Source: an uncultured Gammaproteobacteria bacterium (GTDB taxonomy: Bacteria > Patescibacteriota > Microgenomatia > Levybacterales > UBA12049). From it: a DNA stretch of 40,334 nt. Each line of letters begins with the position of its first letter. The stretch's first letter is position 1. The stretch is taken from NCBI GenBank assembly GCA_964508395.1, contig CAZDTO010000001.1, positions 1-40,334 on the forward strand, given 5' to 3'. The notes beneath the pieces are model-generated. The model did not search any database, was not told the origin of the DNA, and saw only the letters and a program-made list of their open reading frames with translations. This document shows positions 3,100-40,334 of the stretch, piece after piece. A program made the translations under genes and the position numbers.

Positions 3100-3309
3100 G
3101 AAGACAGGTACATAAGCAAGAATGCTTTTTTAACCGATCCTGTAAAAACCAGACGGGATTAAAGCGAAGGGCAGAATAAGGAGAAGTTGAGGGGATTGTA
3201 AGTGTTCATGTATTTGACTCTAGCAGTCCCTTCAACAAAGCAATTGAGGGGTAAGAAAAGTAAAAGGAAGTGTGGGTATTGTCCATGACCACCTGCCCCT
3301 CAGCAAATT

Positions 3310-3618
3310 ATGAAAAAACATTTTTTTGAAGCAGGAAAGCAAAAATTAGTTAAGAGTAAAGTGTCTGGATATGTTTGTCTTTGTAGGGTTTGTGGCAAGA
3401 CAGCATTCGAACACACGAACTGGAAAGAGGGTTTTATGAGGACTGCAAGAGCTATACAAAGATCGGAAGAAAACTATCCAATCAAAAAACTACCAGTCAG
3501 GAGAGGCGTACAACTTAGCTCAACGCTGTCTGGTCAAAGAGAATTAATAAGAGAAATGAGAAACAAAATCAACGAAATTATTAAATATATAAATGAAGAT
3601 TATGAAAAAACCAAGTAA
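3310..3618 (+). CDS. hypothetical protein with CxCxxC motif
   Basis: Track ORF. Contains CLCRVCGK. Confidence 0.45.
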   Translation: MKKHFFEAGKQKLVKSKVSGYVCLCRVCGKTAFEHTNWKEGFMRTARAIQRSEENYPIKKLPVRRGVQLSSTLSGQRELIREMRNKINEIIKYINEDYEKTK

Positions 3619-3949
3619 AAAAACATTAAAATTAAGAGCCGATAAATTATTTAGAGATAAGGTTCGTTCTCTAGGTAGGTGTGAATTAAGAGGGCTAGAT
3701 CACATAGAGTGTTCTGGTGATCTGCAAACTATGCACATAATAGGCCGTAGTAATCACAGGTTGCGTTGGGAGCTACTCAATTCGATTTGCGGGTGTTCTG
3801 GTCATCACTTTTGGTATACTAACAATCCGTTCTACTTCTTTGAGTTAGTTAAAAGGGAATTTCCCGGCCGATATGAATTTGTTACCCAGTATAAGAATAC
3901 AGTTTGGGACAAGGATATAGAATCAGTTATTGCTAGATTACAAGTATGA
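3593..3949 (+). CDS. NinG/Rap-like or HNH-like nuclease candidate
   Basis: Pattern LFRDKVRSLGRCEL...LQTMHIIGRSNHRLRWELLNSICGCSGHH resembles the Cys/His layout of lambda NinG-type proteins. Recognised from memory only. Confidence 0.35.
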   Translation: MKIMKKPSKKTLKLRADKLFRDKVRSLGRCELRGLDHIECSGDLQTMHIIGRSNHRLRWELLNSICGCSGHHFWYTNNPFYFFELVKREFPGRYEFVTQYKNTVWDKDIESVIARLQV

Positions 3950-8786: not shown

Positions 8787-9143
8787 ATGGCTTTAATTCC
8801 GTCTCCAGGATTCATGTTACTTGAAAAAGTTCCCGTTCCTCACACCAGTAAGCTGGCTCGTTCCAACGAGGATACCGCAGACTCCAACTACGGCAAGGTT
8901 TTAGATTGGGGTCTGCCTTTACTGCAAGAGGGCGGAGTTGTCCTACAGATACCCAGATTTTCCATAGAGACTAATGAGGAAGGGTTGGGAGGTAAGGAAA
9001 GAAAGCTCAAGAAGGGGGACATAGTAGTTTTCGAGAAGAGAACGGAACGTAAAATGAATGATGATTATAGCTCGGGGGCAGATATAATTCAGGTTCGATT
9101 TGATTCACTGCTCGCTTTATTTATAGAGGAGGTAAGAGAATAA
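8787..9143 (+). CDS. groES: GroES-like co-chaperonin (Cpn10 family, divergent)
   Basis: LIPSPGFMLLEKV (cf. GroES i-P-l-g-d-r-v-l-v), NYGKVLDWG (cf. G-x-V-v-A-v-G), LKKGDIVVFEK (cf. v-k-v-G-D-x-V-l-f) and a terminal IIQVRFDSLLALF. Lies immediately upstream of the GroEL-like gene and overlaps it by 1 nt. Confidence 0.6.
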   Translation: MALIPSPGFMLLEKVPVPHTSKLARSNEDTADSNYGKVLDWGLPLLQEGGVVLQIPRFSIETNEEGLGGKERKLKKGDIVVFEKRTERKMNDDYSSGADIIQVRFDSLLALFIEEVRE

Positions 9144-10792
9144 TGGCAATAATTCCAAAAAGGGTAGAGTTTTCTACGGAGGCTCGAAACTATATCTTAA
9201 AAGGAGCTGGAATTATGGCTCGTGCAGTTGGAACTACCTTGGGGCCTAAAGGCAGGAATGTCTTACTATCCTCAAAATATGGTGGGATTATTGAGGTGCA
9301 TGACGGGGTGACTGTAAGTAACGAAACCAAGCTGGACGATCCTCGTGAAGACGCAGGAGCTACAGCTATACGAGACGCAGCCCGAAAGACTAATGATGCC
9401 TCCGGGGATGGCACTACCACCGCCACAGTTTTAGCTTACGAGATTTTACGGGAGGGGAACGCTTACATAATTGCAGGTAAGAACCCCATGTTGATGCAGA
9501 AAGGTATTGATACTGCGGCTAAGCAGGCGGTCGAACTCCTAAAAGAAATGGCAGAACCTATTAAAGAATCTTTAGAGAAGATGATCCAGGTGGCTACAGT
9601 CTCGGCAGCTGATGAGGAGATAGGAAAAGTTATAGCTGAGGCTCTTAAAAAAGTAGGCAAATACGGAGTGGTGACGGTAGACAAGGGTAACGAATTGGGC
9701 TATCATACCGAGTTTAAGGACGGTATGGAGTGGGATAAAGGCTGGATACATCCTGGTTTTGTTTTAAGGGTGCTTGACGGTAAGCCTAACGTGAGGTTAG
9801 AAGCTAAGGTTGAGGAACCCTTTGTTTTGGTGACCGATCACACGATCACTTCGCGATTAGAGATACTACCCTTTTTGGAGAGGTTTGTGGAGGCGGGACA
9901 CAAAAACTTGCTTATTATCTGTGACGGAGTAGAGAGAGAAGCAATGGTTATTTTAGGAGCGCAGTTTGAACGGGGAGTAATTAATGTCTTGCCTGTTCCC
10001 GCCCCCTCATTTGGTGAGCATAAAAGAGATGGTCTGGAAGACATTGCTATTTTAACGGGCGGAGTGTTTGTCTCTAAAGAGATGGGAATGAACATCAAGG
10101 ACATTAAGCTAGACGTTGAGCCGCAGATATTAGGTAGGGCTGATTCGGTTGTTGCCACCCAAACTTCAACAGTCCTTATAGGAGGCAGGGGTGATCCGGA
10201 GAAAGTCAAGGCCAGGGCAAAACAAATCGAAGAACAATTAAAGGATGCGGATCATGAGTTGAAGAAAGAGAAGTACATCGAAAGGCTTGCCAAGCTGACT
10301 TCGGGAGTAGCGGTAGTTAAGGTCGGGACATCTGGGGATGCGGAAAACAGAGAAAAGACCGAGAGGGTTAAGGATGCCATAGGTGCTACCAAGGCTGCGG
10401 TGGAGGAAGGGATTGTACCTGGAGGCGGAATAGCCTTGCTAGAAATAGCTCAAAAGATAAACACCAATTTGGGTTCTGAGGAGGAAAATCTAGGGGCAGA
10501 AATTTTAAAGAAAGCTCTATTAAAACCAATTAAACTATTAGTAGAAAATGCCGGGGGCAGTCCTGATGTAGTTATTAACGAGATTCTTAAAAAGGAAGCG
10601 GGAACAGGCTATAATGTGGTTACAGGAAAGTATGTTGACATGAAGAAGGCGGGAATTGTGGATCCACTCAAAGTTACTATCTCCGCAGTACAAAATGCGG
10701 CAAGTGTGGGGGGGATGTTATTGACTGTAGAGGCAACCATAACTGATATGCCTGATCCCGAAAGAGAGAAAAAAGAACAGCAAGGAGAATAA
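9143..10792 (+). CDS. groEL: GroEL-like chaperonin (Cpn60 family)
   Basis: 549 aa. Hallmark blocks TLGPKGRNVLL, DGVTV, GDGTTTATVLA, AVVKVG, EEGIVPGGG, GIVDPLKV. Lacks the C-terminal GGM repeat tail. Confidence 0.9.
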   Translation: MAIIPKRVEFSTEARNYILKGAGIMARAVGTTLGPKGRNVLLSSKYGGIIEVHDGVTVSNETKLDDPREDAGATAIRDAARKTNDASGDGTTTATVLAYEILREGNAYIIAGKNPMLMQKGIDTAAKQAVELLKEMAEPIKESLEKMIQVATVSAADEEIGKVIAEALKKVGKYGVVTVDKGNELGYHTEFKDGMEWDKGWIHPGFVLRVLDGKPNVRLEAKVEEPFVLVTDHTITSRLEILPFLERFVEAGHKNLLIICDGVEREAMVILGAQFERGVINVLPVPAPSFGEHKRDGLEDIAILTGGVFVSKEMGMNIKDIKLDVEPQILGRADSVVATQTSTVLIGGRGDPEKVKARAKQIEEQLKDADHELKKEKYIERLAKLTSGVAVVKVGTSGDAENREKTERVKDAIGATKAAVEEGIVPGGGIALLEIAQKINTNLGSEEENLGAEILKKALLKPIKLLVENAGGSPDVVINEILKKEAGTGYNVVTGKYVDMKKAGIVDPLKVTISAVQNAASVGGMLLTVEATITDMPDPEREKKEQQGE

Positions 10793-11046
10793 TGAATACA
10801 GAAACTGGCGAACAATTCATAAAGAGAATTATTAAATGTTCTCTATCCGCTCTCTTTGCAATAGGGGTTACAAGCCCCCAAAACATTGATAAATTAGTTA
10901 ATCATTTTACAGAGGAGTTAATGAAAAACTATCCTGTTGTGCCTAGCGAGCCAACAAATGAGCCTATTCCTGAAAATGCAAGACCGCAGGATGCCCCACA
11001 AGCCCCCCAAAAAGAAGAAGTTGACATAGTAGTAGGGGAGAAATAG
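10792..11046 (+). CDS. hypothetical protein
   Basis: Track ORF, TAATG overlap with the GroEL gene. Confidence 0.45.
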   Translation: MNTETGEQFIKRIIKCSLSALFAIGVTSPQNIDKLVNHFTEELMKNYPVVPSEPTNEPIPENARPQDAPQAPQKEEVDIVVGEK

Positions 11047-11060
11047 AAAAAGAAATAAAT

Positions 11061-11468
11061 ATGGAGTACGTCTTAATTATTATTGCCGGGCTTTTGATTG
11101 CGCCTTACTTAATGTACGGTTGGCTTTTTGGACTCACGCTTATAAAAAGATTATACGACAAAGAATGGAAAGAAACCAAAGGGTTGATTGGAGCGTATGA
11201 AAAGCTAACCCCTGAGCAGAGAATGGACTTAGAGATACATAGGGATCAGCCGACTACCCCAACCCAACAGCAGCCTAAGAGCGATAAGACTACTCAATGG
11301 CTTGGTTCTCCCACTCCGCAGGCAGAGTTAAAATCGCAAAATGAGCAGGCTTTTCGTGAGGGGTTGGTTCATAAAACGCCTGTAACGGGATGGGAAAGTA
11401 ACGAGGAAGCGAACCGAGCGCCTGATACAACGATAACAAATCCATTAGCTTTAGCACCAAAACCATGA
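11061..11468 (+). CDS. hypothetical membrane-anchored protein
   Basis: Track ORF. N-terminal helix VLIIIAGLLIAPYLMYGWLFGLTLI. Confidence 0.5.
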   Translation: MEYVLIIIAGLLIAPYLMYGWLFGLTLIKRLYDKEWKETKGLIGAYEKLTPEQRMDLEIHRDQPTTPTQQQPKSDKTTQWLGSPTPQAELKSQNEQAFREGLVHKTPVTGWESNEEANRAPDTTITNPLALAPKP

Positions 11469-11478
11469 AAGGAGGTAT

Positions 11479-11667
11479 ATGACGATTTACATTTGGGAGA
11501 ATGAAATAAGCAAAATTGTCCTGGCGGTAATTGCAGGTTCAGTAGCTGATGCAATAAAACTTGCAGAGCAAGACGGTATCAAGGTAGAAGGTGAACCCCA
11601 AAGGGTGATATCTCTTGTTGAGCCAACACCCGCAATAGTTGTTTATAGCGGGGAAAAAAATGAATGA
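11479..11667 (+). CDS. hypothetical protein
   Basis: Track ORF, with SD aaggagg upstream. Confidence 0.45.
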   Translation: MTIYIWENEISKIVLAVIAGSVADAIKLAEQDGIKVEGEPQRVISLVEPTPAIVVYSGEKNE

Positions 11668-12005
11668 AATCTTGCTCGCACGTCCTCGGTTTTCTAAGTG
11701 ATATGCGAACTGTCTTAACAGACAGGGATTTTATTGAACGAAAATGCAGAGTTTGCGGAGAAGAAGAAATATTAAAAAGGGCGGGAAAAATCCAAACAGG
11801 CTATAGTGTGCCTGCAGAGCAGTTTAGGGACTTTGAGAGAAGGGAGTTTGCAAAAGAGCAGTTACAGCCCCAGCCGCAGAAGTATGATACGGGACCCGTT
11901 AACGAGTTATTTGAAGACGCTTATGGTGATCCTGCAGTGACAGCCAAGTCCAGGATGGGAGCTAAAACTGATGAGGCTTTTGTAAAGCCAGAAGGAGAGA
12001 AATGA
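11664..12005 (+). CDS. hypothetical protein
   Basis: Track ORF, ATGA overlaps. Confidence 0.45.
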   Translation: MKSCSHVLGFLSDMRTVLTDRDFIERKCRVCGEEEILKRAGKIQTGYSVPAEQFRDFERREFAKEQLQPQPQKYDTGPVNELFEDAYGDPAVTAKSRMGAKTDEAFVKPEGEK

Positions 12006-12442
12006 CTGAACAAAAAACCGATATTAAACAACTTCAAGTAATCTTTGGGGAGGATTTAGACTTATTGTTATTTTATCTTGCTTGGATTAAAAATGGACTT
12101 AATGCCACTAGAGCTTATAAAGAATTGCACCCAAACGTAACAAATGGAAGTGCGGAGGTTTTGGGTTCAAGGGCGTTAGGAAAAGTTAGTAAAGAGTTAA
12201 TTATGCAAGCCTATGGGTTGGATCAACAAATATACTTCGACCAATTAAAAGAAGGAATTGATGCTACTAAGTGGAATGATTTTACAGGCGAGAGGGAAGC
12301 AGACCATAAGACAAGACGGGAATACCACAAGACGCTTGGAAAATTATTAGGAATAGAAAGAGATGATGAAACCCCACCAATTCAAGTGAATGTAGGAGTA
12401 TTTAACAATGCAACTATGGCAAAAAGATATTCAATAAAATGA
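12002..12442 (+). CDS. terS: terminase small subunit
   Basis: LFYLAWIKNGLNATRAYKELHPNVTNGSAEVLGSRALGK matches the Terminase_2-type HTH pattern (N-A-T-x-A-y...a...as.ll). Lies directly upstream of TerL. Confidence 0.7.
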   Translation: MTEQKTDIKQLQVIFGEDLDLLLFYLAWIKNGLNATRAYKELHPNVTNGSAEVLGSRALGKVSKELIMQAYGLDQQIYFDQLKEGIDATKWNDFTGEREADHKTRREYHKTLGKLLGIERDDETPPIQVNVGVFNNATMAKRYSIK

Positions 12443-13359
12443 GAGCTTTTGGAGAAAACATCAATTATCAATCGTTTATCGAGGATAACTTCCTTATCAA
12501 AAACAAGGATGGAATAGTTGTACCATTCCTTTTTGACATCTTCCAGGAGGGACAGATCAGATCAGTACAGGACTACTACATGGTTGACCTATACCGACAC
12601 TATGGCGATGAGCTTGAGGGCGTGAGGGATATTGTCCTCAAGGGACGCAAAGAGGGGTTTAGCGCAATGATACTGGGTATGTTTGCTACCGACTTCTTAA
12701 TGTCGGAACACCCGATCGGCTGCGTATCTATTGCGGATACAAAAGAGGAAACTCAGAGACTATTGAGCAGGGCTAAGTTTTTTATAGAGTCGGCAGCAAT
12801 AAAAGAAAATAGTAAGCTAACGGACATTTGCGATATAGTCAGTAAAAACCAGTTGCGCAATAAGTGGAACGGGGCGGAGTTTTGGATTGGTACAGCAGGG
12901 AGTAAGGTTGCATTGCGTACCGAAACAGTTCAGGACTTGCATTTTTCAGAAGCAGCCTACTTTGCCGATACGGATATCATAACTGCCACAGAGACGATTG
13001 AAGGGGCGTTGCAGATGGTTCCGCAAGGCAAGGGGAAGGTGTTTATCGAGTCAACTGCTAACGGATATGGCAACTATTATCAGGACTTGTGGGATAAGGC
13101 CAGTTTAGGCGAGAGTACCTTTAGACCAGTATTCTATGGAGCTGACCAGTTCTACTCAAAAGAATGGCTGGCTATCAAAGAGATAGACTTTACGACCAGA
13201 GAGATGTTCTGGCAGGAATATCCTAATAGCCCGGGGCAGGCTTTTATTTCCAGCGGCAGTAAGTTTTTTGATACAGAAGCCATACTGTGGTTGCAAAAAG
13301 AGGTTGTTAGAAAGCCTCTGATTGAGGGCAATCTGAACATATACGGAGAGATAGTTTAA
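12439..13359 (+). CDS. terL: terminase large subunit, N-terminal ATPase half only
   Basis: VLKGRKEGFS (Walker A-like), VQDLHFSEAAYF (Walker B/catalytic Glu region), IESTANG (coupling motif), FWQEYPNSPGQAF. Stops at TAA 13357-13359 with no nuclease domain. Confidence 0.8.
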   Translation: MRAFGENINYQSFIEDNFLIKNKDGIVVPFLFDIFQEGQIRSVQDYYMVDLYRHYGDELEGVRDIVLKGRKEGFSAMILGMFATDFLMSEHPIGCVSIADTKEETQRLLSRAKFFIESAAIKENSKLTDICDIVSKNQLRNKWNGAEFWIGTAGSKVALRTETVQDLHFSEAAYFADTDIITATETIEGALQMVPQGKGKVFIESTANGYGNYYQDLWDKASLGESTFRPVFYGADQFYSKEWLAIKEIDFTTREMFWQEYPNSPGQAFISSGSKFFDTEAILWLQKEVVRKPLIEGNLNIYGEIV

Positions 13360-13643
13360 TGAAGTATTTAATAGTAGCTAAATTAAAGAAACAAAAACAG
13401 CAAGGGGGAAAATACTTTTTTCTATCTGATAAAGATTACGAGAGGTATATTGATGAAATGTCAGAATTTAACCCGAAACTTACAGGTAGTTTAGTTAAAG
13501 GCAGTTCAGCGGTGTTAAGTGAAGATGGAGTATTCCTGACCCCTGCTCAACAAGGAATCCCACTCTTATTTTATTGTGGTTTGCCTGTTTTTAGGAAGAG
13601 GTATAAAAAGTTAGTTAAAAGTATTTATGGGGAGATTGTATGA
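13359..13643 (+). CDS. hypothetical protein whose C-terminal tail copies the TerL-N tail
   Basis: Track ORF. Ends ...FRKRYKKLVKSIYGEIV, compared with the TerL-N end ...VRKPLIEGNLNIYGEIV. Confidence 0.5.
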   Translation: MKYLIVAKLKKQKQQGGKYFFLSDKDYERYIDEMSEFNPKLTGSLVKGSSAVLSEDGVFLTPAQQGIPLLFYCGLPVFRKRYKKLVKSIYGEIV

Positions 13644-13891
13644 AAAGATGGTTTGATGATTGGAAGATAGAAACAGAAAATGAACGAAAAAACTATGTTC
13701 GCTTAATACTGCGGTTACCTCATACAAAGTCAAAGCAGAAATTTTTGATGTTAACAGTTAAAAGGAATGGTGGATTACATTGGTTATTTAGCCACTTTGA
13801 ATTAGCTTTAATGAATTTATCAGAGTCTGTAGAAATAACTTTACCAGAAGACACAAAGGTTGTCAAAACAATATATAAAGAATTAAAATGA
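13640..13891 (+). CDS. hypothetical protein
   Basis: Track ORF, ATGA overlaps at both ends. Confidence 0.45.
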   Translation: MKRWFDDWKIETENERKNYVRLILRLPHTKSKQKFLMLTVKRNGGLHWLFSHFELALMNLSESVEITLPEDTKVVKTIYKELK

Positions 13892-14670
13892 ATCCTGCCG
13901 AAGTAATCAGTGAAGTTCTACAATCAATAGCTGAGAAAGCTCAAGTAGGCGTTAATTTATTGGAACTTGAAAAGAGAGCAGAGACTACTATACAAATAAG
14001 AGGAGCCGTTTCGGCAAACAAAAACTATCAACCTCAATGGGCGAAGACACCCTTCCCTTCTGTGGTGTGTCTGGGAGTCAACGATCAAGTAGGACACAAC
14101 ATACCCAGGGATTATGTCTTACAAGATGGTGATCTCTTAAAGATAGACTGCGGTATCACAATCAATGGTCAGGCAGGAGACGCAGGACTCACCATTCCTA
14201 TAGGCAAGATTAGCGATAGGGATGAGAGACTGCTAAGGTATACCAAGAGAGCTTTGTACCGAGGTATCCAAGCTATTCAAGTAGGCGGCAAGGTTAGCGA
14301 GGTAGGCAAAGTTATTGAACGCTATATAATGCAGATGGGATTGGCTGTTGTCAGACAGATGAACGGTCATGGTATAGGAGCGCAGATGCACATGGAGCCG
14401 GCCATCCCGCACTTTATCGTACCGCAAAAGAGAGTCGGGAAGAAGTACGAGTATACCGAGGTTGACTTGGGTACTTTCCGCGAGGGACAGATAGTATGCA
14501 TTGAACCTCATGTTACCTATCATAGCGATGTGGTCAAGGAGGACGATTGGGGTTTGAAAACTAGAGATGGGCGCAAGTCAGCAATGTTTGAACATATGGT
14601 AGAGATTAGTTCATCGGGAGTAAGAATTTTAACAACGCATATTGCAGAGGAGGTGAATTATGGAGAATAA
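13888..14670 (+). CDS. map: methionine aminopeptidase, type I-like
   Basis: Pita-bread fold motifs with all expected metal ligands visible: VGHNIP, KIDCG (Asp), GDAGLT (Asp), GHGIG (His), CIEP (Glu), FEHMV (Glu). Confidence 0.8.
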   Translation: MNPAEVISEVLQSIAEKAQVGVNLLELEKRAETTIQIRGAVSANKNYQPQWAKTPFPSVVCLGVNDQVGHNIPRDYVLQDGDLLKIDCGITINGQAGDAGLTIPIGKISDRDERLLRYTKRALYRGIQAIQVGGKVSEVGKVIERYIMQMGLAVVRQMNGHGIGAQMHMEPAIPHFIVPQKRVGKKYEYTEVDLGTFREGQIVCIEPHVTYHSDVVKEDDWGLKTRDGRKSAMFEHMVEISSSGVRILTTHIAEEVNYGE

Positions 14671-14920
14671 AAATATATTTGTCGCCGGTATCCCCTGGGC
14701 TTTTGATGACCTAAAGTTAAGTGAACTCTTTGCGAAACACGGAGCGGTAGTCTCGGCTAAAGTTATAACTGACAGAGATACGGGGAGATCAAAAGGCTAT
14801 GGTTTTGTTGAGATGTCAACATCAGAGGAAGCCCAAAGCGCAATCAAAAACCTTGACGGTACTGATCTTAATGGGCGAAAATTGGTAGTCAATGCCGCAA
14901 AACCAAGAAGGGAGGTATAA
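14660..14920 (+). CDS. RRM-type RNA-binding protein
   Basis: 86 aa. RNP2-like IFVAGI and a perfect RNP1 KGYGFVEM (14792-14815). Overall it resembles small bacterial RRM (Rbp) proteins. Confidence 0.8.
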   Translation: MENKNIFVAGIPWAFDDLKLSELFAKHGAVVSAKVITDRDTGRSKGYGFVEMSTSEEAQSAIKNLDGTDLNGRKLVVNAAKPRREV

Positions 14921-15141
14921 TGAGCAGTTGTGTCGTTTGTGAAAAACCTTTGGCGAAGTATCATTGCTTGCCCGATGTATATTACTGTGTCAGTCCAAGA
15001 TGTACGAACTTGGGGTTGTTAACAGTGATTGTTTTAACGCCTCAAGCGACTAAAACGGAGGTAAAAGATGATAAAGTTGTACCGCAATCTGGAAGCGTTG
15101 GAGCCGATAGTCCTGTCGGGGGATCCGGGGGAAGGAATTAG
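14920..15141 (+). CDS. hypothetical zinc-ribbon protein
   Basis: Track ORF. CVVCEKP...CVSPRC. The last 74 nt overlap TerL-C in another frame, so the C-terminus is uncertain. Confidence 0.35.
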   Translation: MSSCVVCEKPLAKYHCLPDVYYCVSPRCTNLGLLTVIVLTPQATKTEVKDDKVVPQSGSVGADSPVGGSGGRN

Positions 15142-15748
15142 TTTTGCCGCAGGAGTTTGTATAAGCAAGAAGTACCATGATGTACCGCTTGTTTATCATG
15201 CAAGGATTGAATCTCCCGCTTTTGGGAACGAGCTCTACAAAATGGGGCTGTTTGTTAAGAAAAAAACAGGGGACTTTCCTTTATTGGCTGTAGAACGAAA
15301 CATCGGTGCAGCTACAATAGCCAAACTCATTGAGCTGGAGTACCCGTACGGCAAGCTATACAGGCAGAAAACCTTTGACAGAATACTGCGTCAGGAAGAA
15401 GACAGGATAGGATGGGTTACAACATCTACCAACAGAAGAAAGATGCTGGATGATCTGGCTTTGGCTATCCGTAGAAAAGAGTTGAAAGTCTACGATAAAG
15501 ATATTGTAGATGAGATGCTTACCTTTATTATTGCGGAACGCACAGGAGAACCAAGACCTGAGCGTAACCACTTCTCTGATCTGATTATGGCATTGGCAAT
15601 AGCAAATCAAATAGCGGGAGAAAACAGAATAGCGGCGAAGTGGGCGCCGACAATAGAGAAGAAGGAGAAAGATAACTATTTGCCTGAGAAAGCGGAAGGT
15701 TTTATTACCGAAAAATGGCAAGAAAAAAGAGATTGGCGATCAGGTTAG
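15068..15748 (+). CDS. terL: terminase large subunit, C-terminal RNase H-like nuclease half only
   Basis: IVLSGDPGEG (first catalytic Asp strand), AVERNIGAATI, GWVTTSTNRRKMLDDL, HFSDLIMALAIANQ. Own SD GGAGG 15057-15061 and an in-frame TAA 15062-15064 just upstream. Confidence 0.75.
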   Translation: MIKLYRNLEALEPIVLSGDPGEGISFAAGVCISKKYHDVPLVYHARIESPAFGNELYKMGLFVKKKTGDFPLLAVERNIGAATIAKLIELEYPYGKLYRQKTFDRILRQEEDRIGWVTTSTNRRKMLDDLALAIRRKELKVYDKDIVDEMLTFIIAERTGEPRPERNHFSDLIMALAIANQIAGENRIAAKWAPTIEKKEKDNYLPEKAEGFITEKWQEKRDWRSG

Positions 15749-15751
15749 GTA

Positions 15752-15780
15752 TTGACAAACGAGAAAATTAAGATAATAAT
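15752..15780 (+). promoter_or_regulatory. sigma70-type promoter candidate upstream of the portal gene
   Basis: TTGACA 15752-15757, ~17-nt spacer, A/T-rich -10 (gataataat). Confidence 0.35.
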
Positions 15781-15825
15781 ATTAGAGCCTATGATCTTTG
15801 TAGCAGGTATTTACGAGCGTAATTT

Positions 15826-17859
15826 ATGGCACTGCCAACTGTGGCGGAGGATACAAAAGAAGGCGCTGGCGAAATACAACAATGGTCTACTATTGATACC
15901 TCTGATGCAGACCTCATAAAAATAATCAACAAAAGGATTCAGAACGCAACCAAAGACTTTGAGGAACTCCGCACCGAAGGTTTAAGAAATGAACGCTACT
16001 GGTCTAAGGATCACTTACAGGGTATTGATCTTCGCTGGCATAACTCCCGTATCGTACAAAATAGAATTTACCTGAATGTGGAGACAATGGTTCCTATTAT
16101 TACCTCAAAGCCCGCCGAGCCTGTCATCAGTATCGTCAACGATGAAGAAGAAGAAACGCAAAAAAGCAGAGACTTTATATCATCTTTGCAAAAAGTCTTA
16201 TTAGATAAATACTACGATGAGGATTACCCCCAACAGGAACTTTTTGAGATGATTGCCCGCCACCTTTTACTTTTTAAGATCGGTATTCCTAAGATAGTCT
16301 GGTATGACGATATTGATGATTTTGTCGTTGAGTTTGTCCATCCCCACAAAATGATGGTAGGGGCGGACGGATATTACAGCAGTGATGTTTGGACCGCGCA
16401 ATATCTTGAAAAGTCGGTTAAGGAATTGGTTGATGAATTTCCAGAAAAGAAAGATGAATTTTTGTTAAAGTTATTTCCTAACGCGGGAGGAGGCATTGAG
16501 CAATTTGGAGACACTCCTGTTGGCTTCTGGGAATATATGCCTGAAGACGGCAGGTATATAGTCTGGAAAATGCGGGATGTTATTTTGCAGAAAAAAATTA
16601 ATCCATATATTAAATGGACTGATGACAAGAAATTTGACAAGGAAAACAACCATTTCGATTACTCAAAAAAGCCTACTATGTTTCTTAACTCCCAGACTTT
16701 AGGCAGGCATATCTGGGATGACACCTCAGTTGTCAGTCAGGCTATTCCTTTGCAGGATGGCATCAATTTAATGCAAAGGATTATTACCGATACGTCAAGA
16801 GATCAGGGTATTCTCGTGGGAGCAATGGAGTTGATCGATAAAGACGAACTCTATAAGTACACGGGAGGGTACAGCGAAAAACTGGCGGTAACAGGAAGCG
16901 ATCCGACAAAGGCTTTGCATCGAGTAGACCCCAAGAAGTTAGAGGCTTTTATACAGGATAATCTTTTGCACCTAGAGAATGCTTTGGATAATGTGATGGG
17001 TGTTCATTCAACAACGCGGGGAGAAAAGAGCAGCCAGCCGACATTGGGACAGGATCAACTTTCAAAGGAAGGGGATTACGGAAGAATTGACGGAATTGTC
17101 AGAGGAATAGAGAGAGTAGCTTCAGAGATATATAGCTGGGAAATCCAGATGATGGCAGTCAAGTACAAAGAGAAACATTTTCAGAGAATATTGGGGAATA
17201 AAAGGGGCAAAGAGTTTTACAAAGAGTTTAAGGAAGCTCTGAAGAAAGGTATTAAGATTATCATTAAGGCAGGATCAACTCTGCCTACAGACAAGCGCAC
17301 TCAAAGAGACGAGGCAATAGAACTTGCTAAGGCGGACAAGATTAGCAACCTCGACTTTTTTGAGCGCATGGATTACCCAAACCCCAAGAAGATGGCACAG
17401 AACTTGTGGCTAGAGCAGAACGCTCCCGAAGAACTGTACCCTGAATTAGTTGAGCAAATAACGGCAAAGAAGGAAAAGGATGCGGCGGCAATGCAGGAGC
17501 AAGTGGCAGCGCAACAAGCACCTGTACCTGTTACACAAGTACCAAATGGCGTAACAAATGGACAAGCAATGCCTAATGGTCAGATGGGACAAACTACGCC
17601 AATGGGACAACCCGCTTCCCAAACTCTAGCAGTCGAACCTACAGAACACACGCAAGCCCTCTTATCAGGACAGCAAGTAGAACCTTTTGAGGGTATTGAT
17701 TCCGCACAAGCAGAGGATCATCTTATAAGAGAGTTGCAGTTTGTGGGATCTGATGAATTTATGCAGTTATCAGAAGATATACAGGCTATCTATGCGCAAC
17801 ACGTTGTAGCGGAAAAGGAGATATTGGAACAGCAGACAGGACAACAATCTTATGCCTAA
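15826..17859 (+). CDS. portal protein
   Basis: 677 aa ORF immediately after the terminase. Size and position are typical. Q/P-rich low-complexity stretch near the C-terminus. No motif-level confirmation possible by eye. Confidence 0.6.
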   Translation: MALPTVAEDTKEGAGEIQQWSTIDTSDADLIKIINKRIQNATKDFEELRTEGLRNERYWSKDHLQGIDLRWHNSRIVQNRIYLNVETMVPIITSKPAEPVISIVNDEEEETQKSRDFISSLQKVLLDKYYDEDYPQQELFEMIARHLLLFKIGIPKIVWYDDIDDFVVEFVHPHKMMVGADGYYSSDVWTAQYLEKSVKELVDEFPEKKDEFLLKLFPNAGGGIEQFGDTPVGFWEYMPEDGRYIVWKMRDVILQKKINPYIKWTDDKKFDKENNHFDYSKKPTMFLNSQTLGRHIWDDTSVVSQAIPLQDGINLMQRIITDTSRDQGILVGAMELIDKDELYKYTGGYSEKLAVTGSDPTKALHRVDPKKLEAFIQDNLLHLENALDNVMGVHSTTRGEKSSQPTLGQDQLSKEGDYGRIDGIVRGIERVASEIYSWEIQMMAVKYKEKHFQRILGNKRGKEFYKEFKEALKKGIKIIIKAGSTLPTDKRTQRDEAIELAKADKISNLDFFERMDYPNPKKMAQNLWLEQNAPEELYPELVEQITAKKEKDAAAMQEQVAAQQAPVPVTQVPNGVTNGQAMPNGQMGQTTPMGQPASQTLAVEPTEHTQALLSGQQVEPFEGIDSAQAEDHLIRELQFVGSDEFMQLSEDIQAIYAQHVVAEKEILEQQTGQQSYA

Positions 17860-17980
17860 AAAACTTGAAGCCAAATTACTCAATGCGGCTAAGAGAAAAG
17901 GTTTTAGTAAGGAGAGGATTGGTGCGTATGTTTATGGAAGTCTCCATAAACTGGGTTGGAAACCCAACAAGGAAAAATGA
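17852..17980 (+). CDS. hypothetical small basic protein (42 aa)
   Basis: Hand-translated MPKKLEAKLLNAAKRKGFSKERIGAYVYGSLHKLGWKPNKEK. Overlaps the portal stop. Confidence 0.35.
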   Translation: MPKKLEAKLLNAAKRKGFSKERIGAYVYGSLHKLGWKPNKEK

Positions 17981-18189
17981 AAACCAAAGTAGATAGGGTA
18001 ATTATTCTTAAAAGAATAAGAGATGAAGGCAGGGTATCTTGGAAAATTATTGGTAGAATTTTCAAAATCAGTTATACCAGAGCAAGACAAATTTATTTTA
18101 ATAATGGACAAAATAACAATTATCCTAAAACGACTGGCTTAAAGGTACAGCCTCGAAAAATAGCAGACTATACAAACCTCTATTCTTAG
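17977..18189 (+). CDS. small HTH protein
   Basis: Track ORF 17956..18189, with the ATG at 17977 in an ATGA overlap. VSWKIIGRIFKISYTRARQIY is HTH-like. Confidence 0.45.
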   Translation: MKTKVDRVIILKRIRDEGRVSWKIIGRIFKISYTRARQIYFNNGQNNNYPKTTGLKVQPRKIADYTNLYS

Positions 18190-18216
18190 TCAATAATATA
18201 ACCAGCAGAAAAAGGT

Positions 18217-18256
18217 GAGCAATCTGATAAGCAGTTATCAGGTCGCTCTTTTTTAT
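18217..18256 (+). terminator. intrinsic terminator
   Basis: gagc..ctgataa-gcag-ttatcag..gctc stem (perfect 7-bp core), followed by tttttt. Confidence 0.7.
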
Positions 18257-18319
18257 TTTAATAGATAGTCTCGGAGAACGCTACTCCGCAACAAATATGC
18301 GTAAAAAGACTATGACATT

Positions 18320-19117
18320 ATGTTAAGACCAATAGACGGAGCAGAGGTTTCACAGGAAGAAATAGATGCTTTGAAACCAAAGCCGCCTGAAGAAAAATCT
18401 GAACCTGGGAGTGAACCCAGCGAAAAAACACCAGAAGGGGAAGAAAAGAAGGAAGTCTCGCCCGAAGGCGGAGAGAAAGTTCCTTATCACGAAGACCCGA
18501 CAGTTCAACTGTACATTGAAAGACAAGTTGCCAAAAGAGTCGGGGAGGGCAACAAGGCTTGGGAGGAAAGGTTAGCCAGATTAGAACAAGGACTAACCAA
18601 GAAAGAGGAAAGCCCGAGCATTTTTGGGGGACTAAAACTTGAAGGTAATGATGCGGTAATAGCAAAAGCCTTAGTTTTACAAGCCAAAAAGGAAATGTAC
18701 GAGGACTTAAAAAGGGTTGACGGAGAAAATAGAGCACAGATAGAGAAAGAGGAGCAGGCTTTACTAGGCTGGCTGAACGAACTCAAGACAACCAGCGTAA
18801 TAAAATCTGATGATGACATAACAGAAATTGTCAGGTTACTAAAAAAGTACGGCAAGGGGAGAGATGACGAGGAAGACAAGAGTTTAGTCTTAGAGCTTTT
18901 TGAACAGACAAGGACAGCAAGAGAAGCGGCAATAGCGGAAGGAAAGAAAGCAGGAGAAGAAGAAGGAATTAAAAAAGCTCAGGAGGCAAAGGTAGGTTCA
19001 GGAAGAAAGGGAGCAGAGATAGGCAAGACAGACAGAACCTATCAGGACAGAAGACTGCATGACAGAAACATGGACGATATAGTAGCGCAGGAAATAGAAA
19101 AGATTAGAGGAAGTTAA
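18320..19117 (+). CDS. scaffolding protein candidate
   Basis: Highly charged, Glu/Lys-rich, coiled-coil-like 265 aa ORF between the portal and major capsid genes. Confidence 0.5.
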   Translation: MLRPIDGAEVSQEEIDALKPKPPEEKSEPGSEPSEKTPEGEEKKEVSPEGGEKVPYHEDPTVQLYIERQVAKRVGEGNKAWEERLARLEQGLTKKEESPSIFGGLKLEGNDAVIAKALVLQAKKEMYEDLKRVDGENRAQIEKEEQALLGWLNELKTTSVIKSDDDITEIVRLLKKYGKGRDDEEDKSLVLELFEQTRTAREAAIAEGKKAGEEEGIKKAQEAKVGSGRKGAEIGKTDRTYQDRRLHDRNMDDIVAQEIEKIRGS

Positions 19118-19185
19118 AGAATTACTAAAAGTTTATATCAAAAATATAAATTTCTAGTAGCACTTTAACAACTGAATAGATATAG

Positions 19186-19214
19186 TTGACAGAGGAGTTT
19201 TGTAGTGTTATACT
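19186..19214 (+). promoter_or_regulatory. sigma70-type promoter with extended -10 driving the HNH gene
   Basis: TTGACA 19186-19191, 17-nt spacer, TGt 19206-19208, TATACT 19209-19214. ATG 19221 lies about 7 nt downstream, so the transcript may be leaderless. Confidence 0.5.
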
Positions 19215-19220
19215 TTGGAT

Positions 19221-19778
19221 ATGCCAAGGTATAAATTTCCCAAAGGACATATTGCTTGGAATAAGGGAAAAACTGCTAAAAACGATCCTCGAATCTCAAA
19301 ACTTGCAGTATGGCAAGGTAAAAAGTTTTCTCTTGAGCATCGCAGAAGGATTGCCGAAGGAAATAAGGGCAAGAAAATGTCTGAGGAAGCCAAAGAGAAA
19401 ATAAGACAGTCCCATTTAGGCGAGAAAAACGCAGTGTATGGGAAGAAACAGACGCCAGAGCATATTGAAAAGCGGACGGCAAAGATTCGGGGTCGTAAGA
19501 ATACTTGGTTGCAAGGTAAGAAACACAAACGATGGCAAGGCGGAGTCAGAAGAGATAGAGGCTATAGATATATTCTCAAACCTAACCATCCAAATGCAAT
19601 CCAGGGATATGTAGCAGAACATAGACTTGTAATAGAGGAACAATCAGGAGAATTATTAGATCGAAAATTGGTTGTCCATCATATAGATGGGAGCAGAGAT
19701 AATAATAACCTAGAAAACTTACAAGTCCTAAATAGAAAAGAACATAGCAGACTACATAGACTACAAAAACTTCATTAA
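19221..19778 (+). CDS. HNH homing endonuclease with NUMOD3-like repeats
   Basis: Track ORF 19215..19778 (TTG 19215, ATG 19221). Repeated s-x-E-h-r-x-k-I motifs (LEHRRRIAEGNKG, SEEAKEKIRQSHLG, TPEHIEKRTAKIRG). C-terminal HNH block VVHHIDGSRDNNNLENLQVLNRKEHSRLH. Confidence 0.8.
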   Translation: MPRYKFPKGHIAWNKGKTAKNDPRISKLAVWQGKKFSLEHRRRIAEGNKGKKMSEEAKEKIRQSHLGEKNAVYGKKQTPEHIEKRTAKIRGRKNTWLQGKKHKRWQGGVRRDRGYRYILKPNHPNAIQGYVAEHRLVIEEQSGELLDRKLVVHHIDGSRDNNNLENLQVLNRKEHSRLHRLQKLH

Positions 19779-24052: not shown

Positions 24053-24466
24053 TTCGTAATCTGATCTGAGAGGAAACTCTCTACGAGTATGGCGGCCGCC
24101 GTCTCACCTTTCAGATCAGGCTAGGAATGGCTTGAGATGGAGCAAGACACCTACAGGCACTCTTTTCCTCGTAAGAGGTTCGGCGAATAAAAAGAGATAA
24201 CAGTAGGACGTACACTAACTCATTCAGACGCATCTATTAGAAACGCTTGACTCTCTCAAGAACAAACAAGGGAGTAGGAGGACTAAGGATGAATGCGGAG
24301 AATAGATTAGGAACGGAAGGTGAGATCAACTACTCGTACCCTAGTACCCCGAGAGGGGGAAATAAGGGAAGGATTAAACACGCAATTTGACAATCTAAAA
24401 TCGTTTGACATTCACGCAAGAGTCAAAGTCTTCTCTATCGGGTAGAAGATGGAGACTCTTTTTTTG
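24053..24466 (+). ncRNA. candidate large structured RNA (family not recognised), ending in an intrinsic terminator
   Basis: No ORF of 60 aa or more on either strand. Three GNRA-capped hairpins on the + strand only (gagag-GAAA-ctctc 24068-24081, cctc-GTAA-gagg 24167-24178, cccc-GAGA-gggg 24347-24358). Nested long-range helices tacgagta/tactcgta and tctcacc/ggtgaga. See findings. Confidence 0.45.
24418..24466 (+). terminator. intrinsic terminator
   Basis: aagagtc (24418-24424) pairs with gactctt (24454-24460). Inner stem tcttct (24429-24434) pairs with agaaga (24444-24449). T-run to 24466. Confidence 0.65.
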
Positions 24467-24487
24467 GTAAAGAGGCACATTGAAAAA

Positions 24488-40267: not shown

Positions 40268-40334
40268 TACATTATGACATCGCAAAAGTTATATTGTACG
40301 ACATAATCACTTTCTCCTCCAAGGCTGCTTAAAC

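Follow-up and report, generated by a model that had tools for sequence, protein, structure and literature searches.

The stretch of DNA analysed here, referred to below as the window, comprises positions 1 to 40,334 of contig CAZDTO010000001.1 (assembly GCA_964508395.1) and represents a tailed-phage genome of ~40 kb whose genes follow a single-strand layout and include those for a T4-type terminase and an HNH homing endonuclease. In its packaging region the large terminase (TerL) is divided between two open reading frames (ORFs), and the gap between them carries, among other small ORFs, a type I methionine aminopeptidase (MetAP) and a single-domain RNA-binding protein of the RNA recognition motif (RRM) type. 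Reading along the + strand, the ATPase half of the terminase (TerL-N, 306 aa, 12439-13359) is followed by five gap ORFs, namely o94 (94 aa, 13359-13643), o83 (83 aa, 13640-13891), the MetAP gene (260 aa, 13888-14670), the RRM gene (86 aa, 14660-14920) and zf73, which encodes a 73 aa Cys-rich protein (14920-15141), and then by the RNase H-like nuclease half (TerL-C, 226 aa, 15068-15748) and a probable portal gene (677 aa, 15826-17859). An earlier note on this DNA had placed the MetAP and RRM ORFs at these positions, with an 11 nt overlap, inside a terminase gap and in the same block as the packaging genes, all of which is borne out: the two genes share positions 14660-14670, the flanking ORFs align to two parts of an unsplit terminase, and gap and packaging genes form one tightly packed + strand block whose stop and start codons overlap or abut.

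Both terminase halves were identified through a family profile only (A3, built from 40 full-length relatives), the single-sequence approach having failed: neither half has a match in Pfam, and P0190, an unsplit relative of 526 aa, retrieves on its own nothing from the PDB. TerL-N aligns to residues 3-283 of P0190 (41% identity, E=3e-67) and TerL-C to residues 314-524 (38%, E=3e-38), and in the 514-position profile the two span positions 4-300 and 313-501, respectively. The profile in turn matches the T4 gp17 terminase (Terminase_6N/6C type; 3ezk, E=5e-40), covering its ATPase domain (2o0h), as well as the nuclease domains of RB49 and G20c; among the PHROGs families TerL-N also matches phrog_26724 and phrog_38407, and TerL-C matches phrog_24361, 'terminase' (E=3e-8). 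With the 306 aa ORF as query, exhaustive searching by HMMER returns 536 relatives at E<=1e-10, which comprise stand-alone proteins of ~300 aa, full-length ones of 480-555 aa and longer, intein-bearing forms. The ATPase and nuclease domains are therefore not on one polypeptide in the window, where two ORFs lie 1.7 kb apart with five others between them, and the break falls between profile position 300 and about 310 in every related locus, which argues for a single ancestral splitting event. From these alignments a single split in the linker that joins the ATPase to the nuclease domain appears to have turned the large terminase gene into two separately translated ones. Literature searches with the terms used retrieved no paper on an unspliced split TerL, and we regard the split terminase as the more unusual feature of the locus.

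The translation signals across the gap are compact. The stop codon of TerL-N overlaps the start of o94, translation of the gap ORFs is coupled to that of TerL-N, and the stop codon of o83 overlaps the MetAP start codon (ATGA), while TerL-C has a GGAGG ribosome-binding site and ATG of its own. TerL-C starts inside zf73, sharing 74 nt with its 3' end and being read in the +1 frame with respect to it, and the same frame relation recurs in three related loci (L003, L006 and L010), where the overlaps measure 26-35 nt from the likely starts; because TerL-C has its own ribosome-binding site, no frameshift is needed for its expression. A scan of positions 10500-19500 yielded chance-level counts both of terminator-like sites and of promoter-like sites, the latter on a sigma-70 consensus that may not be the host's promoter type; the terminator result and the overlapping or abutting codons favour a single operon. 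Near-consensus sigma-70-like sites (11/12 matches) were seen at 15752-15780, upstream of the probable portal gene, and at 19186-19214, upstream of the HNH gene, within these chance-level regional counts.

A further observation concerns the ORF ends along the gap. TerL-N and o94 share the C-terminal sequence IYGEIV (13339-13359 and 13623-13643), o83 ends in TIYKELK (13868-13891), TerL-C begins with MIKLYRNLE (15068-15094), and the unsplit relative has VHVYRELK. These similar sequences may have been left by insertions that struck one site repeatedly, or may reflect constraint from the next gene's ribosome-binding site: DNA similarity in the IYGEIV repeat is limited to ~20 nt, which also form the ribosome-binding site of the following gene and in which GGAGAG encodes the Gly-Glu of IYGEIV. 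The o94 homologue in L168 ends in IYKDIE, unlike the IYGEIV of the window, and a target-site duplication is no more than a tentative reading of the repeat.

Comparison with related loci distinguishes a constant gap gene from a changing cargo. The order TerL-N, MetAP, TerL-C is kept in L003-L011, L086, L087 and L168, and the arrangement recurs in independent assemblies from several samples (37-42 kb in length), so it is not a product of chance. In L168 and L169, whose MetAP is 88% identical to that of the window, the gap holds a 95 aa ORF homologous to o94, then MetAP, RRM and the Cys-rich ORF, and TerL-N itself carries an intein. In L086 and L087 (MetAP 69-72% identical) the gap has MetAP followed by RRM, and in L003 (~58%) it has MetAP, a 54 aa zf_Tbcl protein and the Cys-rich ORF; L006 has MetAP and the Cys-rich ORF, L010 has ~2 kb of extra ORFs ahead of MetAP and zf_Tbcl behind it, and L011 has MetAP alone. 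MetAP is hence the only constant gap gene, and the other gap ORFs come and go. Homologues of o94 are absent from L003, L006 and L011, and o83, present in L001 and L002 (same phage), is not seen in L003, L006, L011 or L086; neither of these two variable cargo ORFs has a significant match in Pfam, PHROGs, NCBIfam or PADLOC. As for zf73, homologues stand directly upstream of TerL-C in L003, L006, L010, L087 and L168 and are absent in L011; the protein has no family match in Pfam or NCBIfam, and its Cys pattern (CxxC...C...RC) suggests that it may bind zinc. No gap ORF has a PADLOC match that would point to a defence or anti-defence role.

The constant occupant of the gap is an intact member of a well-known enzyme family. 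The ORF at 13888-14670 matches Pfam Peptidase_M24 (E=8e-34) and scores 210.2 bits against the NCBIfam model TIGR00500, 'type I methionyl aminopeptidase', above the cut-off of 171.35, whereas the type II model TIGR00501 gives 75.9 bits, below its cut-off of 222.65, and the type II helical insert is lacking. In an alignment of 35 sequences, window residues H70, D87, D98, H161, H168, E206 and E235 correspond to E. coli H79, D97, D108, H171, H178, E204 and E235, and all seven catalytic positions are invariant, which covers both the five ligands of the dinuclear metal centre (D87, D98, H161, E206 and E235) and the two substrate and transition-state histidines (H70 and H168, E. coli H79 and H178). 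The residue numbering of the E. coli Map sequence used here checked out. An AlphaFold2 model built with 46 homologues (predicted local distance difference test, pLDDT, 94.4; predicted template modelling score, pTM, 0.91) shows the pita-bread fold, and the top 50 PDB structures retrieved with it by Foldseek are all MetAPs, nearly all of them explicitly type I (TMq 0.83-0.86). Catalytic residues stay invariant across 43-88% identity, and the ratio of nonsynonymous to synonymous substitution rates (dN/dS) is 0.08-0.10, the value against L168 (0.08) equalling that of TerL-C (0.08). The window MetAP is an intact type I enzyme under purifying selection, and it is predicted to be enzymatically active. 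The earlier note had listed motifs of the metal centre and substrate histidine, all of which are in the translation, and had called the gene functional-looking rather than decayed, a description that the invariant residues, the dN/dS of 0.08, the pLDDT of 94 and template modelling (TM) scores of 0.84-0.86 favour.

Set beside the bacterial type Ia enzymes (MEROPS M24A; E. coli Map; 2mat, 3tb5 and 3mr1), the window MetAP has the same pita-bread fold (TM 0.84-0.86), the same metal ligands and histidines and the same size, and an N-terminal extension is absent in both. It differs in starting ~10-13 residues later than E. coli Map, in a 6 aa insert after Y47, which is also found in one actinobacterial sequence from a metagenome-assembled genome, in an insert, Lys-rich and variable, that separates H168 from E206, and in an identity of at most 37% to any sampled cellular MetAP. 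Its genomic context is likewise distinct, since it is encoded beside or inside terminase genes, unlike its cellular counterparts.

This distance from cellular enzymes extends to a whole lineage. A large protein database contains ~60 homologues of the window MetAP at 40-88% identity, many of them on contigs of 37-45 kb, and cellular proteins appear in the same search only at 31-37%; among 185,579 species scanned with one genome each, no MetAP exceeds 37% identity. A neighbour-joining tree separates 56 database members and 17 viral loci from IMG/VR from 83 cellular MetAPs, with a bootstrap of 85/100 for this split in an 80-taxon subsample. The window MetAP accordingly groups, as far as tree and identities indicate, in a virus-only clade that numbers at least 73 sequences. 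The earlier note had expected MetAP phylogeny to reveal the donor lineage and thereby the host; this did not work out, as the best cellular matches (32-37%) come from Actinomycetota, Bacteroidales, Planctomycetes, one Saccharibacteria and others, and a donor or host call from MetAP was dropped in favour of a host clue from GroEL.

Elsewhere among viruses, MetAP-like genes are present but mostly of another kind. IMG/VR holds ~103 viral contigs with such a gene, many of them on contigs >100 kb, and most of these genes group with cellular MetAPs in the tree; a translation-gene neighbour (four genes tested) was found at 1/80 IMG/VR MetAP loci, where it is InfA. GenBank phage records gave 27 MetAP matches, all below 35% identity and many resembling host fragments. 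The isolate Vibrio phage V6Aob has an annotated 'type I methionyl aminopeptidase' among typical phage genes, and BFVD, a collection of predicted viral protein structures, returned only three M24-fold matches, all from giant viruses. The statement in the earlier note that it knew of no characterised phage MetAP stands in that our literature searches, with the terms used, found no paper characterising or discussing one, and needs qualifying in that MetAP-like genes are carried by the ~103 IMG/VR contigs and by the annotated Vibrio phage.

The clade also has a preferred address, a point that goes beyond the earlier note: the adjacency of MetAP and terminase is conserved across unrelated terminases. 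In L012, L013 and L033 a MetAP of the clade lies 0.8-1.3 kb upstream of an unsplit TerL of 535-545 aa that belongs to the same TerL family as that of the window; in L252, a phage that has Mu-like head genes, a 555 aa TerL lies downstream of it, and in L253 the genes downstream of it encode a Terminase_2 small subunit, an SU10-type portal and a TerL of 505 aa. Over these five loci the distance to the TerL is 0.8-1.9 kb. Neither of the last two TerLs matches the family profile of the window TerL at all. In total the terminase-adjoining clade occurs in four further phage groups, two of them with unrelated TerL families, and residence inside a split TerL is confined to the window lineage. A place within ~2 kb upstream of the packaging genes is thus kept by phages whose terminases are unrelated. 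The MetAP and RRM proteins of the window are themselves ordinary members of well-known families, and phage-borne maturation enzymes are an idea already known; what is new here is the virus-only MetAP lineage, its association with terminase genes in phages that are not related to one another, and its presence within a split TerL that is apparently not spliced.

The second gene singled out by the earlier note has a different history. The RRM ORF matches Pfam RRM_1 (PF00076) with E=2e-21 (76.1 bits against a threshold of 20.7) and, marginally, NCBIfam NF058537, 'RNA-binding regulator' (103.4 bits against a cut-off of 100). The RNP1 motif proposed in that note as canonical, KGYGFVEM, is confirmed as K45-GYGFVE-M52 with Y47 and F49, and RNP2 is I6-FVAGI-11 with F7; an alignment of 18 sequences shows no variation at G46 and F49 and only Phe or Tyr at the position of Y47. 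The RRM gene has a strong ribosome-binding site, GAGGAGG, within the 3' end of MetAP. Bacteroides RbpA/B/C (NF058537), which are global regulators that bind single-stranded RNA, have the same single RRM_1 domain of ~80 aa with aromatic RNP1 and RNP2 residues (PMC11697453); the window protein differs from them in being phage-encoded, in being translationally linked to MetAP and in lacking the Gly/Arg-rich tail that many cellular homologues have. By this resemblance the RRM protein most likely acts on phage (or host) transcripts, as a chaperone or regulator that binds single-stranded RNA; the role in mRNA handling late in infection that the earlier note envisaged is pure conjecture.

It follows MetAP directly only in the window, L168/L169, L086 and L087, and its dN/dS (0.32 against L168, 0.15 against L087) points to weaker constraint than on MetAP. 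Nearest cellular relatives are 58-64% identical, much closer than for MetAP, which argues for recent capture, and the RRM gene would accordingly be a cellular-type gene that one subclade acquired later. MetAP and RRM are consequently not an ancient pair, the latter being confined to the closest subclade with its dN/dS of 0.15-0.32. A host call from RRM similarity was dropped, since the 64% match shares its contig with Planctomycete-type genes, while a match from Saccharimonadales reaches 60%. Phage RRM genes, of which the earlier note had known no characterised example, are not without precedent: RRM_1-like genes are present on ~162 IMG/VR contigs and in Microcystis phage MaAM05.

In relatives the slot right after MetAP can be filled differently, with a zf_Tbcl protein (PF13451, 'probable treble clef') in L003 and L010 in place of the RRM of the window subclade. 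Near MetAPs of the phage clade, zf_Tbcl genes were located at L003 10819-10983, L010 10759-10944, L012 7631-7810, L013 9611-9796, L018 9337-9549 and L020 9053-9265, that is, within 1 kb of MetAP in five phage-locus groups (L003-L005, L010, L012/L013, L018 and L020), and near 0/80 cellular MetAP loci. MetAP and a small nucleic-acid-binding partner, zf_Tbcl or here RRM, might on this positional evidence form a two-part module that guides the enzyme to ribosomes on late phage messages, which would give the phage a co-translational processing device of its own, linked to the assembly of virions; we consider this idea doubtful.

The wider genome gives some indication of the host. A GroEL gene lies at 9143-10792 (Pfam Cpn60_TCP1, E=1e-63); its database matches begin with a phage clade (55-95% identity), after which the best-scoring named cellular matches (~51%) are all from Microgenomates, Shapirobacteria or Patescibacteria. 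The host is therefore probably a bacterium of the Candidate Phyla Radiation (CPR)/Patescibacteria, as judged from GroEL similarity, and the window probably a phage of ultra-small groundwater bacteria; the record name of relative L003, 'Hain_H14_01um', was counted in support. Literature searched on CPR and groundwater phages contained no mention of MetAP, GroEL or RRM genes. Contigs with the phage-type GroEL have the same lengths as the MetAP contigs. Immediately upstream of GroEL in the window is a 118 aa ORF (8787-9143), without a family match of its own, in the slot that relatives use for the Cpn10 gene, and in L003 an HNH gene (3279-3818) sits between cpn10 and cpn60.

Several further features of these genomes were recorded. 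The phage lineage is rich in mobile elements, both homing endonucleases and inteins, and the window itself has a free-standing HNH_3/NUMOD3 homing endonuclease gene at 19215-19778. The 16-mer TCGCAAAAGTTATATT is present near both window ends (40-55 and 40280-40295), and the window has no exact terminal direct repeat. In L086, whose MetAP is 69% identical, Tet_JBP, TAGT (Tet-associated glycosyltransferase) and NinG genes (87-1696) directly precede the terminase region, which suggests DNA hypermodification in part of the phage group; Pfam gave no such matches among those window ORFs that were scanned. Finally, a 435 nt segment at 24053-24487, between one + strand gene and two - strand ORFs, folds more stably than shuffled sequences (z = -2.78; 0/100 shuffles fold as well) and has a GC content of 44% against 41% for the window; Rfam assigns it to no family above chance, and comparison with the fetched parts of L003, L006, L010 and L168 detected no sequence match.

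Taking these results together, we propose that the space between the terminase halves became a slot for accessory genes, of which a competent, virus-lineage MetAP serving late methionine excision would be the constant occupant and the RRM gene a later addition, and we put the probability of this explanation as a whole at roughly 60%. Made together with the packaging and structural proteins, MetAP would act after the host deformylase and remove the initiator methionine from phage proteins with a small second residue, for example the 677 aa probable portal (MALP...), GroEL (MAII...) and the products of most downstream genes of the probable structural region, and the late maturation step would thereby become independent of host MetAP capacity. 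Peptide deformylase acts one step ahead of MetAP in the same pathway. The late role is suggested by analogy with two systems, since certain Streptococcus phages need their host's MetAP and cyanophages carry a deformylase. In cos-type Streptococcus phages a host MetAP mutation blocks a late step and leaves adsorption, replication and protein expression unaffected (Labrie et al. 2019, PMC6761271); MetAP activity can accordingly be limiting late in infection, which fits the placement among packaging genes seen here, with the difference that the enzyme there is the host's, the critical phage substrate not having been identified in that study, whereas the window phage brings its own. The peptide deformylase of cyanophage S-SSM7 is likewise a phage-borne copy of a host enzyme for co-translational N-terminal processing (PMC3660681); the analogy is functional only, as it belongs to a different enzyme family and has been studied structurally and functionally, and the window MetAP is known from its sequence.

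Several points weigh against this proposal. A small second residue is found in 25/50 window genes, including the probable portal and GroEL, and late genes are not distinctively enriched in putative substrates (13/22 genes from 15826 on, the probable structural region, against 12/28 others); a share of 50% is unremarkable, so no specific MetAP target is implied. No deformylase was found among the scanned window ORFs or the relatives' gene tables. Activity and expression of the phage MetAP are predictions, and its substrates and timing, like the targets of the RRM protein, are assigned here provisionally. The Lys-rich loop of E. coli MetAP (residues 208-229), which we take to be its ribosome-docking loop, is not conserved in the phage enzymes; these have instead a Lys-rich insert, variable and modelled with lower confidence, that lies between H168 and E206, so that they may dock on the ribosome differently, if they dock at all. 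Placement ahead of the terminase could simply mark an early/late boundary where accessory genes accumulate. The host inference, in addition, depends on a GroEL similarity of ~51% only, and the nearest cellular RRM relatives are taxonomically mixed (Planctomycete 64%, Saccharimonadales 60%).

The alternative that survives best grants the enzyme the same activity and gives it another purpose: rather than adding bulk capacity, the phage MetAP would let the virus escape host resistance or shut-off in which the host MetAP is mutated, down-regulated or inhibited. A single point mutation in the host MetAP confers strong resistance to cos-type Streptococcus phages, and the effect transfers to S. mutans (PMC6761271), and the MetAP clade is old and spread across unrelated phage groups, as would be expected of a generally useful escape gene. 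MetAP is, however, usually essential, and the resistant mutants of the same study grew less well (PMC6761271), and nothing in the sequence separates escape from the capacity model; we judge this explanation unlikely, though it deserves to be kept in mind.

A second alternative, to which we give little credence, has MetAP and RRM as selfish or neutral passengers ('morons') of no benefit to the phage, lodged in a gap that a mobile element made by splitting the terminase. It would suit a cargo as variable as o94, o83, RRM, zf_Tbcl and the 2 kb of other ORFs, in a lineage with an HNH/NUMOD3 gene (19215-19778) and with inteins in the TerL-N of relatives. MetAP itself does not behave in this manner: it is constant in the gap, evolves at a dN/dS of 0.08 just as TerL-C does, retains its catalytic residues at 43-88% identity, and phage groups whose TerL is unsplit have kept members of its clade. 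For RRM alone the passenger reading is harder to exclude.

Less probable still is a MetAP fold without catalysis, which would occupy the ribosome exit site or serve the packaging motor as a third subunit that bridges the terminase halves. Its attraction lies in the position of MetAP between the two halves here and adjoining terminase genes elsewhere, in the clade-specific inserts (6 aa after Y47 and the Lys-rich loop) and in the existence of non-enzymatic pita-bread proteins such as EBP1, whose model TIGR00495 gives a weak match. Five metal ligands and two substrate histidines that never vary are nonetheless hard to explain without catalysis, and the occurrence of MetAP with unsplit and unrelated terminases rules out a dedicated bridge.

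We consider it highly improbable that the 1.7 kb between the terminase halves are a self-splicing intron or an intein whose removal restores one full-length TerL. There is precedent, as group I introns are documented to interrupt terL genes that splicing then restores (PMC12880540), and relatives of the window carry inteins inside TerL-N, as in the 568 aa TerL-N of L168 (7230-8936), other TerL-N relatives bearing LAGLIDADG inteins; these lie inside the ATPase domain and not at the break. Rfam, however, detects no intron or other family in the window at gathering thresholds, and in positions 13200-15300 at E up to 5 it gives three chance-level matches (E above 1), none of them to an intron family, a test that very divergent introns could escape. 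Pfam finds no intein domain on either half, and fewer than 10 unassigned residues at the junction leave no room for the Hint domains or intein halves of a split intein ('fractured gene'). The counterpart of the VHVYRELK motif of unsplit terminases both ends TerL-N (NIYGEIV) and begins TerL-C (IKLYRNLE), so splicing would duplicate it, and the coupling of the gap ORFs to TerL-N, together with the ribosome-binding site and ATG of TerL-C, speaks for separate translation. On these grounds, namely Rfam, Pfam, junction residues, doubled motif and ribosome-binding site, both intron and intein were rejected. The interrupted terL genes of Jug, crAss-like phages and actinophages (PMC12880540) resemble the window lineage in a broken coding sequence with other ORFs in between and in an abundance of homing endonucleases and inteins; they differ in that the window junction shows neither intron RNA nor intein halves, that its terminase halves are apparently separate polypeptides, and that its gap holds a conserved metabolic enzyme and not an endonuclease. 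That the contig is cellular or a misassembled host fragment, with MetAP a host housekeeping gene, hardly merits consideration, for although many 'phage' records with MetAP do look like contamination (short, unannotated Listeria and Salmonella fragments, Acinetobacter 'phage MD-2021a' contigs), the window has a T4-type terminase, an HNH endonuclease, a single-strand layout and independent relatives of 37-42 kb, no species genome has a MetAP more than 37% identical, and InfA is a neighbour at just 1/80 IMG/VR MetAP loci.

If the window MetAP is active, the takeover of nascent-protein processing by phages would extend from deformylation to methionine excision, and the first virus-only MetAP lineage would be defined. 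The presence of MetAP beside the terminase in unrelated phages echoes the need for MetAP at a late step of some phages, and the terminase-linked enzyme offers a tractable route to the phage protein that must lose its methionine. The natural split of TerL is in turn a natural experiment on whether the ATPase and nuclease domains of a packaging motor need a covalent link. Carried together, a phage MetAP and GroEL suggest that the output of virus from ultra-small CPR cells is limited by their capacity for protein maturation.

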